From NCBI GenBank assembly GCA_951406725.2, contig OX597826.1:49414001-49478000 (forward strand): a DNA stretch of 64,000 nt. The letters are read 5' to 3'. The DNA comes from Octopus vulgaris. Taxonomy: Eukaryota. Positions 16,121-61,279 of the stretch are shown here, piece after piece (position 1 is the stretch's first letter; each line of letters starts with the position of its first letter). The translations under genes were made by a program, and so were the position numbers. The notes under the pieces are model-generated. The model made no database searches and was not told the DNA's origin. It saw nothing but the letters and a program-made list of their open reading frames with translations.

Positions 16121-16786
16121 ATCAATATAAGGGTAGCAAAAAAATTCAAGAAAAATTCAAAAAAAATTTTCTGCAACCAGCGGTCAAGTGAGAAAGTAGA
16201 AATAGTCACAGACTATATAATATATTCAACAATAGTATTAAGGAATGACCCTGACAGGCCGTTCAACTCACTTGAAAGAGCAGCTAAACTCAAACCGCAA
16301 AATAGCAGTAATTCTGAAACTAAAGGAGAAATAAAAACATTTATCCCCTTCAACTTTGTACCATGCATAGTTTCCACATTTTTACGCAATCGAATTAAAT
16401 TAAATTAAATTAAATCCGTTTACGATTGGCTTGTCTCATCAGCAAAGTAGCCAAAGAAAAGGAAAATATATACACACGAGGCAGCACCATCGAAGCCTCG
16501 AGTTCATATATCCTAAATTTTCGAAATCCACCGTAACCGCGCCATCTACTCAGCAGCAAATATAAACTGCTGATACAATTTCAGAATTAGTAAAAAAAAT
16601 CATGAATTAATCAATATAAGGGTAGCGCTGCTGAGTAGATGGCGCGGTTACGGTGGATTTCAAAAATTTAGGATATATAAACTCGAGGCTTCAATGGTGC
16701 TGCCTCGTGTGTATATATTTTCCTTTTCTTTGGCTACTTTGCTGATGAGACAAGCCAATCGTAAACGGATTTAATTTAATTTAATT
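16121..16786. mobile_element. 489-bp-unit HHR element: one full unit on - plus an inverted partial copy on +, in (TA)n
   Basis: 17-bp direct repeat ATCAATATAAGGGTAGC at 16121 and 16610; inverted arms 16398-16557 / 16627-16786. Confidence 0.85.
16353..16448 (-). ncRNA. Type I hammerhead ribozyme with elongated stem II
   Basis: ACUUUG-CUGAUGA-GACA...(53 nt incl. CAAUCG/CGAUUG)...UGUG-GAAA-CUAUGCAUG-GUA-CAAAGU; stem I 6 bp; near-palindromic stem III; G-G mismatch at the base of stem II. Confidence 0.75.
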
Positions 16787-17135
16787 ATATATATATATAT
16801 ATATATATATATATATATATATATATATATATATATATATATATATACTAGGTAATCCACCATCAAGACTTTGGTCGACCCAGAGCTACCACAGAAGATA
16901 CTTGTCCAAGGTGCCACAAAGTTAGACTGAAACCGCAAATAGTCGCTGGGAAGCAAGCATCATACGCCTCTATATAATGCATAATTTTTATAATACATAG
17001 GTATGATAAAACTTGTATATATATATATATATATATATATATATATATACACACGTATATGTTCATATATATATATATAGGCGTATATGAGCACACACAT
17101 ATATATACGTACATATATTTATATATGTACGGTCA

Positions 17136-17390
17136 AAGGATGTTGAATGAAACACCCATGTTTCCAGAGGTGAATTATTCAAACTCCAAAGAATCCATCT
17201 CAACATATGACTATGATGCTCCCCCACTACTTCTGCTCATGATCAGAGATGCTCATATCGTCAGCCACTAAGGGACATGATCAACTGGTTAAGGTCAAAC
17301 AACTGACAAGCAAATCTGTGGTATTGAGCAGAATATTTGCTGTCGCCCATCTTTAATTCCAAGACAACACAATGTACATGATAATAAACA
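17136..17390 (-). mobile_element. Fragment of repeat family D
   Basis: Matches 17984-18287 and 32528-33064. Confidence 0.8.
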
Positions 17391-17983
17391 AGTGAAAACC
17401 AGTATACTGTGTGTGTGTGTTTATTCGGCAAAAAAAATAAGATGACTATCCGAAATATTTGTTTCAACACACGGTTTCACATCAGGGATCTTACAAAACA
17501 AACTCATAAACGTAAGGTGTATATACATACATACATACATACATAATACACACTTACATACACACACACACATGGATATAGACACATACATATATATAGA
17601 TGTATGCTTTTATATAGTTATACATGTACACATATTTACTGATAAATGCATACATATTTACGCATGTAGGTATGTATGGTTGTATGCATACATTTAGCTC
17701 TGTGTGTTAGTATGTATACATGCATATATGTATATCTTTATGTATCTATTTATATGTATGTATGCATGTATGTATATGCCTATGTCTGTATATTCGAGAC
17801 CCATGAAAGTATCTTTACGTTCCAACATGATCAGATGCCATATACGATTGGGCAATTGAGAACAATGTTCCCTTCAAGTCCACAAAAAAAAAACCGTGTC
17901 CCTAGCTAGGGACAGAAACCCACCCACCAATGGCTCTATCTTGTCTCCCAACAAGCAATCCATTCAAAACACCGAATCTTTTG

Positions 17984-18287
17984 CCAGTTAGAATTTTCTT
18001 CTTGTCGAGTAACCCATCCCGCTCAAAAGGTCCCTGAATAAGGGTTGTTTAATGATGTTGAACGAAACACCCATGTTTCCAGCGGTGAATTATTCAAACC
18101 CCAAAGAATCCCTCTCAACACATGGCTATGATGCTCCCCCACTACTTCTGCTCGTGATCAGAGATGCACATATCGTCAGCCACTAAGGGACATGCTGAAC
18201 TGGTTGGTTAAGGTCAAACAACAGACAAGCAAATCTGTGGTATTGAGCAGAATATTTGCTGTAGCCCATCTTTTATACCAAGACAAA
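17984..18287 (-). mobile_element. Fragment of repeat family D next to a trinucleotide tract
   Basis: CAGAGATGCACATATCGTCAGCCACTAAGGGACATG core shared with the other copies. Confidence 0.8.
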
Positions 18288-57573: not shown

Positions 57574-58108
57574 TGTATGTATGTATGTATGTATGTATGC
57601 ATGTATGTATGTATGTATGCATGTATGTGCATGCATGCATGTATGTATGTATGTATGTACATGTATGTATGTACGTATGTATGTATGTATGTATGTATGC
57701 ATGTATGTATGCATGTATGTATGTATGTATATACATGTATGTATGTACGTATGTATGTATGTATGTATGTATGCATGTATGTATGCATGTATGTATGTAT
57801 GTATGTATATACATGTATGTATGTACGTATGTATGTATGTATGTATGTATGTATGTATGTATGTATGTATGCATGCATGCATGCATGTATGTATGTATGT
57901 ATGTATGCATGCATGTATGTATGCATGTGTATGTATGTATGTATGTATGTATACATGTATGTATGTACGTATGTATGTATGTACGTATGCATGCATGTAT
58001 GTATGTATGTATGTATGTATGTATATATGTATTTATGTATGTATGTATGTATGTATGTATGTATGTATGCATGTATGTATGTATGTATGTATGTATGTAT
58101 GTATGTAT
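57574..58108. repeat. (TATG)n microsatellite with variants
   Basis: Direct. Confidence 0.95.
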
Positions 58109-58109
58109 A

Positions 58110-58313
58110 TACACCGTCATCTCACTTTGTTGGACCGTTGAACTCTGCACATTTTTTTCTCTATCCGTTTATTTCATTCTCTCTTCATTTTTTTCTCTCT
58201 TAATCCATTTTGTCAAAGTGCGTAGGTTCGAAACGTAAAAGACATTTCCATTTTTCCCGAGTGTTAAACTAAAACACCAGCTAGTTGTTACTACACGTGT
58301 CTTCATCTTTTGT
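58110..58313 (+). mobile_element. Degenerate short HHR element (subfamily 1)
   Basis: TTGTCAAAGTGCGTAGGTTCGAAACGTAAAAGAC at ~58210-58243; ends at (TA)n. Confidence 0.55.
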
Positions 58314-61279
58314 TATATATATATATATATATATATATAAATTATCAATTTAATATATAAATTACCTACAAATTTTTATCTCATGCCGACTACTTGATAA
58401 AATCATTAACGTGATTTTATCCTCCTATTATATATATATATATATGTATATGAATATATATATATATATATATATATATATATATATATATATATATATA
58501 TATATATATAACATACATACATATGCATACGTATCTGCATTTGGATATGAATATATACATATATGTATGTGTGTGTATGCGTCTATGTGTGTTTGTACTC
58601 ATGTGTGCGTTTGTACTCGTACGTTTGTGATCATCTTCTGTATATATTGGGCTTCTTGATGTCCAATAACCTAGTAGGTCATTGAGTGGCTATCGATAGA
58701 ATAAGCACCAGACAGAAATTAGAACGAAGTTCGATAGAAATGACCAAAATGACTGCCTTAAGACAATGTCCCAGCATGGCAGCAGTCAACAGAGCGAGAC
58801 CAAAACACAGTTTGAAGAATATATTAAAAATCTCTTCGACTAAGGAACTGGCAAAGGGAAATTGTTGTTGTTGTTGTTGTTGTTCTTCTTCTTCTTCTTC
58901 TTCTTCTTCTTCTTCTTCTTCTTCTTCTTCTTCTTCTTCTTCTTCTTCTTCTTCTTCTTCTTCCAGCTTTGCTATATAAATTTTTTGTCTGTATCTTTCG
59001 TGGGTCCGACGGTAGACTCTGATTTGGAGGAGATTTGGCTACTATCTTTGGCATGTCAATAACTGCTTACAGGTTCACATCCATTGACCCCAGCAACGCA
59101 AAAGTGGGTAACCATTGGCTGCAAGGAATTCTAATTAAGTCTATGCTGAAAGAGCTTGGTCGATATTTTTGCTGTTTAGCTACGCTCCTGGAGAAGTTCC
59201 TTAACTCTTAACTAAATAATTAAATGTCAATGTTTGACTTCAAGATACAATTTCGACTCCCTTCAATTTCTTCTTTGCAACAATTTTCTCGGCAAGAAAC
59301 TTCCTGAAATATCGCTTTCATGTTTGTTATAAGTTTGTGTGTGTATGTATATGTGTGTTTGTATGTGCGTGTGTTTGTGTGTGTGTATGTTTGAGCGTAT
59401 GTATGGATCTGTGTATGCCTGTGTTCATTAATAATAAACTGCTGGAACGATGTATATATATATATATATATATGTGTGTGTGTGTGTGTGTGTGTGTGTG
59501 TGTGTGTGTGTGTGTGTGTTTGTGTTTGTGTGTGTATATATTATACATATACGAATATATACTATATATATGCATATATATATACATATACACACACACA
59601 CACATATATATATATATATATATATATACCTATTTATATATACATATACATAAATATATACATATATATACGTGTATGTACGTATGCATGTATATATGTA
59701 TGTATGTATGTATGTATGTATGTATGAATATATGTATGCATGTATGTATGTATGTATGTATGTATGTATGTATGTATGTATCTACGTGTGTGTGTGTATC
59801 TGCCTCTGTGTGTGTTTAGTAATGATAAACTGCTGGAATGATGCAGCTACAAAAAGATATTCGTTTATTACGCGTGTAAGAAAATGAAAGAGTCAAAGTT
59901 AGAGAAAGAAAGAAAGAAAGAAAGAAAGAAAGAAAGAGAGAGAGAGAAGTGAGAAAATGGTGGTAGCGGGGATGATAGTAAGGAGAAAAATAGAAGGTAA
60001 AAGTTTGTGACCCTAGTATGTGATGTTCTGTCCTCATTTTATGATAATTATTATGTTTGTGTATATCTTTTTTTTTATTTATGGTTGTAATTTTTCTTTT
60101 GATGTTATTTATACATAAAAAGAAAGAAAAGAAATCAATGTGTGTGTGTGTGTGCGGGCGTGAAGGTGTGTGTGTGTGTGCGTGCATGTGTATGTGTGTG
60201 TGTCTGTGTGTGCGTGTGTATGTGTGATGGCAGATATATCAAACACGCGGTCGAATCATTCTCAACAGTTGTTCTGAGCGCAACTATTTGCAGACGACAA
60301 CATGGCCACCGATAACACGGCAGACGATAACAATGTTCAAACTACTGAAGATAGGAAAATGCCTGTTTAAGTTTTTATATGTTAATTTTATTTGTAATCT
60401 GAATAGTTAGAATTTATGTTGAAGCACAAATAATAAAATAAGATCTCCTCGTTTACTATTGTTATTGAATAAGAAAAATAAAGCGAAGAAAGATTAAAAA
60501 CTATCATAATGTCTGAAGAGATATACATTGCCTTTATTCACAATTTCAAACATTGTTCAGAGGACATAAACTTTCAAACTAAAGTTTATAATAAATGTTT
60601 AAACTTTATATTTGTATGTGTGCGTGTTTGTGTGTGTGTGTGTGTGTGTGTGTGTGTGTGTGTGTGTGTGTGTGTGTGTGTGCGCGCGTTTGTGTGCGAG
60701 TGTGTATGTATGTGTGTGACTGTGTGTGTGTGTATGTCTGTATGTGTGTATACGTATGTATATGTCTATATGTATAAGTGTGTGCGTATATATAAATATG
60801 TATGTATGTATGTATGTTTGTATGTATGTATGTATGTATGCAATTACACACGCTCTCACACACACACAGATAGATAGATAGATAGATAGAGAGAGAGAGA
60901 GAGAGAGAGAGAGAGAGAGAGAGAGAGAGAGAGATGGATAAAGCTGTATGAAATAGGATATATACATAATTCTGAGTATTGTATGTACAAATATAAAGCA
61001 CTATAAATGATCTAGAACAGAGAAGGAAGAGAATGTGGACATTAGTGAAAATCAGTTGTCTTGCAGGCGTTAACAGAATGTTTCAGATAAAAGGTAAAGG
61101 AGAAAAATCTATGAGTTGCATAACAGAAATCTGTAGATATGAAAGCTGAAATATAAGTATAGATTCATACATGTGATTGTTAGGAAACCTGGTTGTGTGT
61201 GTGTGTATGTGTGTGTGTGTATGTGTGTGTGTGTGTGTGTGTGTGTGTGTGTGTGTGTGTGTGTGTGTGTGTGTGTGTG

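Follow-up and report, generated by a model that had tools for sequence, protein, structure and literature searches.

Octopus repeat families with retrozyme anatomy carry a predicted, covarying RNA fold beside two 3' end sites

Retrozymes, the Penelope-type helpers proposed for them, the targeting of (TA)n tracts and initiation at two sites are already known. In the available parts of the published accounts, Penelope-like elements are proposed as the movers of metazoan retrozymes without long terminal repeats (non-LTR retrozymes; PMC7229834; 10.64898/2026.07.22.740005), and 8 of the 9 Xenopus elements assayed by Li et al. failed to cleave (10.64898/2026.07.22.740005). According to the accessible sections of a study on the anole Anolis carolinensis, its Penelope-like element Poseidon initiates internally in vitro at two stem-loop sites, which defines a 'tail', and the Poseidon protein cuts and extends both target strands (PMC11167929). 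Here we analysed 64,000 nucleotides (nt) of Octopus vulgaris DNA (assembly GCA_951406725.2, contig OX597826.1, positions 49,414,001 to 49,478,000 of the forward strand; hereafter the window), in which six loci carry a short hairpin with conserved flanks. We model this hairpin as the last helix (P2) of a conserved fold of ~170-200 nt that is predicted in at least 12 non-coding repeat families. A literature search, with subscription papers, Repbase and most supplements outside it, returned no description of a covarying fold common to retrozyme families. In an octopus repeat annotation, the accessible main text contains neither 'hammerhead' nor 'ribozyme' (PMC13282606).

The six loci represent six different non-coding families, F1-F6, and a pattern search of the 2.8-Gb genome surfaced at least six more. 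First-look candidates numbered 1,909 for F1, 1,075 for F2, 2,790 for F3, 3,391 for F4, 1,615 for F5 and 425 for F6, of which 39-40 per family were scored; the 40 scored F1 candidates are 85-98% identical. Identity to the window copy is 95-99% for F5 and many F1 copies, which are therefore young, and ~80-85% for F2 copies. Units of 467-563 bp stand in tandem, up to five in a row, and copies are 5'-truncated, often with an inverted arm, and embedded in (TA)n. Partial tandems, an inverted arm, a tail at one end and a (TA)n target together make up the Penelope insertion signature. Across the six window elements we found no open reading frame (ORF) of at least 120 amino acids (aa), microsatellite read-through aside, and no frame joining reverse transcriptase (RT) and GIY-YIG domains, so they are not autonomous Penelope-like elements. 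F1, F2, F4, F5 and F7 have type I hammerheads on the same strand, ~190-280 nt before the hairpin end; most of these show a long stem II and a loop III that is palindromic. A strict hammerhead descriptor was found upstream of the module in 6 of 25 F1, 4 of 25 F2, 3 of 25 F4 and 19 of 30 F5 loci, most of the loci counted being 5'-truncated, and also in F7. Five of the six families in the window have the hammerhead core, and all six insert in (TA)n with tandem and inverted arms in the Penelope style, which identifies them as non-LTR retrozymes by anatomy; their self-cleavage is predicted from sequence.

These elements resemble metazoan non-LTR retrozymes in their non-coding tandem units, type I hammerhead, low GC content and lack of LTRs; they differ from the available accounts of those retrozymes in their units of 467-563 bp and in having a predicted fold common to several families and candidate fixed start sites (PMC7229834; 10.64898/2026.07.22.740005). 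Xenopus retrozymes are described, in the part of the source at hand, as matching the terminal repeat of their partner, whereas no such match was found here (10.64898/2026.07.22.740005). With the Hydra and Neptune clades of Penelope-like elements they have in common the (TA)n target, partial tandems and an inverted 5'-truncated arm, and with Penelope-like elements generally an optional tail at one end; the Hydra clade carries the canonical hammerhead. Unlike the Hydra and Neptune elements covered by the accessible text, they contain no reading frame, and their tails measure 80-130 nt rather than 30-40 (all PMC8557442).

Other element classes were considered and rejected. ARAGORN found no tRNA in the window, which counts against a tRNA-derived short interspersed element (SINE), although decayed tRNA heads can be missed. 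Helitron-type elements are marked by a fixed 5' TC, a 3' CTRR or subterminal inverted repeats, and a hairpin 10-12 nt from the end. The 3' ends here are AU-rich without CTRR, the 5' ends vary and there are two alternative 3' ends, so a Helitron or Helentron was set aside. A reading as a selenocysteine insertion sequence (SECIS) was also rejected.

We then assessed the module that the earlier note, made from this sequence alone, had described as a CTG(R)CCAC-like motif followed by a hairpin. Hairpins and flanks were present at all eight coordinate stretches it gave. The plus strand assigned to 45353-45398 was wrong, this being an inverted copy on the minus strand, and the hairpin at 19887-19909 exists, but the family hairpin there is 19884-19912, with its second pair broken in this copy. 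The motif is exact at three of the six loci (19.9k, 38.1k and 46k) and inexact at the other three; what the loci have in common is RCYRCY(N)-G[G/A]U-stem-A[C/U]C-CUUWU. This pattern occurs five times in the window; 100 block-wise dinucleotide shuffles gave 0.07 matches on average and never more than 1, a comparison that is circular because the pattern was derived from these same loci. Folded singly, the six hairpins gave z-scores of -2.8, +0.9, -0.4, -3.7, -1.5 and -4.3 against shuffles, and only the three at -2.8, -3.7 and -4.3 beat them.

The hairpin is real but is only the 3' helix of the larger fold. In our model, helices P0, P1a and P1 form a three-way junction, followed by an RCYRCY linker, P2 and CUUAU. 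The family consensus runs from the 5' strand of P0 (GYRGU) through a small hairpin (P1a), the 5' strand of P1 and an inner hairpin, which in most families is followed by CU(U/A)AU, to an AU-rich stretch and another small hairpin. Then come the 3' strands of P1 and P0 (RCYRC), one or two bases, P2 and CUUAU. The CTG(R)CCAC-like motif is the 3' strand of the long-range helix P0. P0 occurs as GUGG/CCAC, GCGG/CCGC or GUAG/CUAC, and P1 is very different between families.

For 8 of the 13 representatives (F1, F2, F3, F4, F5, F7, F9 and F12a), the joint P0 and P1 score was higher than in every one of 12 cross-family pairings and 300 shuffles. These eight comprise all six multi-copy consensus sequences, F9 and a single F12a copy. 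We also aligned 19 copies from 9 families with MAFFT on sequence alone. In this alignment 79.9% of cells pair, compared with 33-44% in slid-partner controls, and 14 of 22 pairs have changed on both sides. The copies were well preserved, picked for high scores and related, so we read this result as support and not as a probability. Unconstrained folding returned the three-way junction and P2 in 7 of 9 families, with F7 P1 in a shifted register. The hammerhead strand folded more stably than its opposite in 9 of 9 families, and P1 was lost on the opposite strand in F4 and F5. Folding unfiltered family alignments in the manner of RNAalifold revealed little structure, since these included truncated copies; filtered family consensus sequences were used instead. 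The proposal that pairing is kept while sequence diverges was borne out between families by the helix tests for P0, P1 and P2. The RNA domain is real and conserved, and probably has a function.

Genome-wide, the pattern matched 12,465 times, compared with 1,416 times for a reversed control. By subtraction, ~11,100 of these matches have G-C or A-U as the second P2 pair. The form with an A.C mismatch at this pair is at chance level (471 matches against 557 in the control), and the G.U form has 880 matches against 306, part of them on the antisense strand of a Neptune reading frame. Pairing of the closing stem was not demanded by the search. Among the first 30 consecutive matches, four of which form one tandem array, it had a probability above 0.5 in 23, with a mean of 0.78 against 0.32 when the interior was shuffled. 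A TA run lay within 25 nt downstream in 15 of these 30 matches and upstream in none.

These counts bear on a neutral explanation, in which the families inherited their likeness from one ancestral terminal repeat and the AU-rich hairpins arose by chance. The three hairpins that did not beat shuffles fit it, as does the partial clustering of the families by sequence. However, long-range helices are kept by two-sided changes while their loops diverge, the pair-breaking P2 variant stands at control level, and two families left out of alignment building (L476 and L487) retain P0 and P1 by eye. We consider the neutral explanation very improbable.

The earlier note had linked the structure to the integration end, and mapped 3' ends bear out this link. 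In the window, a TA run follows 7-15 nt behind the hairpin at five of the six loci only if the inverted copy at 45353 is counted, but the hairpins at 19887, 46022 and 46560 sit inside tandem units. A TA run lies within 60 nt of 76 of the 195 distinct module copies. We mapped 144 3' alignment ends beside (TA)n. Of these, 68 are outer ends, 0-34 nt behind P2; 71 are inner ends, in the P1 loop behind the inner hairpin and CU(U/A)AU; and 5 lie elsewhere. The outer cluster is partly selected because the queries contained the outer end; the inner cluster is not. The hairpin precedes one cluster of ends, but there are two integration ends and not one, 80-130 nt apart in these families. Of 34 loci whose ends fall on both strands, 31 use the outer site in one arm and the inner site in the other, as do the F4 and F5 insertions in the window. 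Nor are the elements one family: they have one fold in common but fall into at least 12 separate sequence families.

Where the ends lie, together with published results for a different Penelope-like element, makes it likely that a reverse transcriptase recognises the structure or is primed there. We consider it reasonably probable that the fold recruits an RT-endonuclease of the Penelope type and fixes the two internal sites at which it starts. In this scheme transcription of the unit would be followed by cleavage at its hammerhead and perhaps by circularisation. Both strands of a (TA)n tract would be nicked by the enzyme, which would prime on the AU-rich stretches that the fold displays ~13-15 nt past a hairpin. 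Copying would begin at the outer site for one strand and at the inner site for the other, so that the arms come to lie back to back.

Alternatively, annealing of AU-rich RNA to nicked (TA)n could by itself set the ends, with the fold maintained for a separate step such as export, circularisation or stabilisation of the RNA, or for a host protein. Ends of both clusters are AU-rich, those of the inner one spreading over 10-30 nt; autonomous elements of this genome make two-ended insertions without the fold, and one F1 arm of the window terminates in a different AU-rich loop. Yet the outer end lies 11-17 nt behind P2 in 48 of 64 F1-F5 junctions although the sequence there varies, ends fall only rarely (the 5 of 144 above) in other AU-rich parts of the unit, and by eye a hairpin and then a CU(U/A)AU-like word precede both sites in most families. 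We regard placement by annealing as rather unlikely.

The signal could also act as DNA, as a single-stranded hairpin of the Helitron type or as an endonuclease site. P2 folds with DNA energies too in most families. The endonuclease of Drosophila virilis Penelope requires tail sequence, as cited in the available text of the Poseidon study (PMC11167929). Hammerheads on the same strand, variable 5' ends, inverted arms and the lack of a CTRR end speak against a DNA signal, as do the fall of F5 P1 from 0.79 to 0.12 with DNA energies and the G.U pairs in P1 of 7 of 9 families. We judge it improbable.

We searched the genome for the autonomous partner. A Neptune search via GIY-YIG (148 matches; 30 loci and 10 stretches read) found a young family with a 781-aa frame. 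A Hydra search with three RT motifs (1,464, 403 and 682 matches), together with one search each at the protein and the DNA level, found many Hydra-clade families, including young ones with 727-aa and 904-aa frames. The Poseidon family is decayed, with 152 matches and frames broken in 25 of 25 loci. Reading by eye, we did not find the fold in the published consensus ends of Hydra or in Naiad ends, as far as these sources extend, Naiad copies in the genome not having been searched. A metagenome scan with a Hydra protein gave one locus from 62 candidates, without the fold. Our best guess, and no more, is a Hydra-clade partner; a Neptune element is a distinctly weaker candidate, and some other element a slightly weaker one again. 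Hydra-clade elements have canonical long-stem-II hammerheads and two 3' ends ~70-185 nt apart, like the 80-130 nt of the retrozyme families, compared with 38 nt between the ends of the main Neptune family, whose hammerhead core is decayed. By eye, the outer end of one Hydra family lies within the loop of a long-range helix. The F5 hammerhead flank is weakly similar to one Hydra family (blastn E 3.5e-4; not significant by profile). No significant sequence match or fold copy was found in the Hydra families examined, and no sequence match between our families and the autonomous Neptune families examined. In one insertion, a Hydra RT fragment is joined to an F5-like unit in one TA tract with no TA run between, which suggests the joint that a template switch would give. 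This fusion (L288, L321, L322 and L399, a segmental duplication on contig C1) has a short junction duplication just past the hammerhead cut.

Several observations weigh against recruitment of a Penelope-type enzyme by the fold. Besides the AU-rich end sites, by which annealing alone could place the ends, the P0 and P1 test failed in 5 of 13 representatives, all single copies (F6, F10, F11, F12b and F13); another F6 copy scored 30, where passing scores were 32-37. The two P1a pairs reach only 44% in the 19-copy alignment, other pairings out-compete P0 in the F4 fold, and the F6 fold lacks P1. Covariation counts are not independent events because the families share ancestry. The strict hammerhead was found in 0 of 25 F3 loci, whose core is present with a weak stem I, and a core in 0 of 25 F6 loci. 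None of ~25 autonomous families judged by eye carries the fold. A profile search of 282 autonomous loci gave matches that, among those viewed (18 of 40 listed rows, and others explained), were nested non-coding copies, and family hammerhead profiles had no significant match to any autonomous family (best E 0.05). The Hydra fusion is a single event, present in segmental duplicates. The 38-nt tail of the main Neptune family has CCAC, a hairpin and CUAAU, with the junction 16 nt on, a feature that points to Neptune as the partner.

Like anole Poseidon, the retrozymes would start internally, as judged from their ends, at two sites that lie within or next to a stem-loop, downstream of a hammerhead. 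In the accessible text on Poseidon, its sites are adjacent, in an AC-rich stem-loop inside the ORF without target homology (PMC11167929). The octopus sites, by contrast, are AU-rich and separated by 80-130 nt, and they belong to a multi-helix fold that many families have in common. In pairs of a SINE and a long interspersed element (LINE), a common 3' stem-loop lets the non-coding element borrow the reverse transcriptase. Unlike such pairs, the octopus elements show no tRNA head and would be copied from two internal sites, and no copy of the signal turned up in a partner. Telomerase RNA has a CR4/5 three-way junction and a template boundary helix, and its enzyme is related to the Penelope type. 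The predicted octopus fold likewise has a three-way junction, and a helix beside the stretch that would be copied. A more speculative and rather doubtful possibility is that the fold is a parasite-evolved module absent from the helper RNA. Its three-way junction would dock the telomerase-related Penelope enzyme and its boundary hairpins would place two enzymes at once on opposite target strands, a role comparable to that of the junction and template boundary in telomerase RNA.

The window copies are laid out as follows. The F1 unit (16122-16625, minus strand; ~488-bp tandem unit) joins (TA)n at 16121 by its outer site. Its long-stem-II type I hammerhead (16359-16442) has a predicted cut ~227 nt before the P2 end. 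The full F1 fold spans 16127-16298 (P0 5' 16298-16293, P1 5' 16275-16267, P1 3' 16192-16184, linker and P0 3' 16185-16179, P2 16178-16132, CUUAU), and the inverted arm (16627-16786, plus) ends atypically in the AU-rich loop of hammerhead stem II. F2 has an inverted arm (19563-19775, minus) with an inner-site end adjoining (TA)n, a hammerhead with a mutated cleavage triplet (19770-19713), P0 5' at 19655-19650 and P1 5' at 19630-19623. Its direct arm (19770-20264, plus) contains P1 3' (19870-19876), the linker, the internal P2 at 19884-19912 and a second, decayed hammerhead (20110-20167). An F2-like copy overlooked by the earlier note (9189-9325, plus) holds the 5' half of the fold and an inner-site end before (TA)n. 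The 5'-truncated F3 copy (37913-38139, plus; (TA)n from 38140) has P1 5' at 38002-38010, an inner hairpin and CUUAU to 38041, P1 3' at 38082-38089, the linker and P2 at 38096-38124. F4 consists of an arm with an outer-site end (43485-43617, minus; P1 3' 43549-43542, linker, P2 43534-43499) and an opposite arm with an inner-site end (43614-43790, plus; P0 5' 43689-43692, P1 5' 43732-43741, inner GGU..ACC hairpin and CUAAU to 43773), (TA)n starting at 43791.

The F5 inverted arm (45340-45870, minus) has its outer-site end 13 nt before (TA)n, with a hammerhead at 45700-45632, the fold at 45541-45348 and P2 at 45398-45353. The direct arm of 538-bp tandem units (45868-47030, plus) ends at the inner site in the P1 loop and carries folds at 45879-46072 and 46417-46610, P2 at 46022-46067 and 46560-46605, and hammerheads at 46258-46326 and 46796-46864. 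Just before this array, in the same TA tract, 3' ends of a Neptune-clade family stand back to back (45012-45297). The short, 5'-truncated F6 copy (58340-58428, plus; P1 3' 58382-58388, linker, P2 58396-58421) has (TA)n on both sides. Elsewhere, the window contains a 322-aa LINE reverse transcriptase fragment (12823-13791, minus; Pfam RVT_1, E 4.7e-14) and a minisatellite of 84 copies of 22 bp (10246-12109) that yields long spurious reading frames; it is rich in microsatellites. An Rfam scan gave no hammerhead or other family at gathering score among the matches listed, which were below threshold, microRNA-like and on microsatellites.

No RNA record was found to contain the elements. In one putative RNA run, contig depth reached 28,000 for F5 and at most 133 for F2; contigs give neither level nor strand, a silent control stretch was uncovered even in a DNA-like run, and we did not use these depths as evidence. 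Part of F5 was found in runs of seven organisms, only four runs having been aligned on F5, a weak hint that F5 occurs beyond this assembly.

The autonomous loci showed further features. Hydra-clade tails (L235, L371 and the published consensus ends) have a stem ending in RAGYACU just behind the inner end. This stem is common to octopus, coral, sea cucumber, a copepod (GUGCACU) and one metagenome record, and may be a distant relative of the P0 strand RCYRCU. The hammerhead of L416 (Hydra clade) is nearly identical to the published Hydra-1_oBim motif, as given in the accessible part of that source. In two Hydra loci with the 904-aa frame (L357 and L477), the outer 3' end is enclosed by an 11-bp long-range helix that closes immediately ahead of the start codon and that a short helix extends past a 6-nt bulge. 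Some Hydra families (L426, L431 and L433) have AT-rich 3' untranslated regions of 2-2.5 kb, and Asn-rich inserts bring their frames to at least 900 aa, longer than the published Hydra consensus sequences available. In a Neptune locus with the 781-aa frame (L186), an upstream ORF overlaps the RT frame, and the hammerhead core is decayed (UUGAUAAG) despite a young family with intact frames. A non-coding element at L139 (minus strand, 2700-3150) has a long-stem-II hammerhead in both arms, ends ~40 nt after the hammerhead cut and lacks the fold.

The finding bears on which enzyme moves animal retrozymes, and on what directs a Penelope-type enzyme to its template and to its internal start sites. 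Natural covariation over a dozen diverged families yields a candidate recognition fold that matches the genome ~11,000 times and comes with two mapped start sites. Young Hydra and Neptune elements whose frames are intact occur in this genome too, so a direct mutate-and-rescue test is possible, and the fold could yield a portable signal for RNA-templated insertion.

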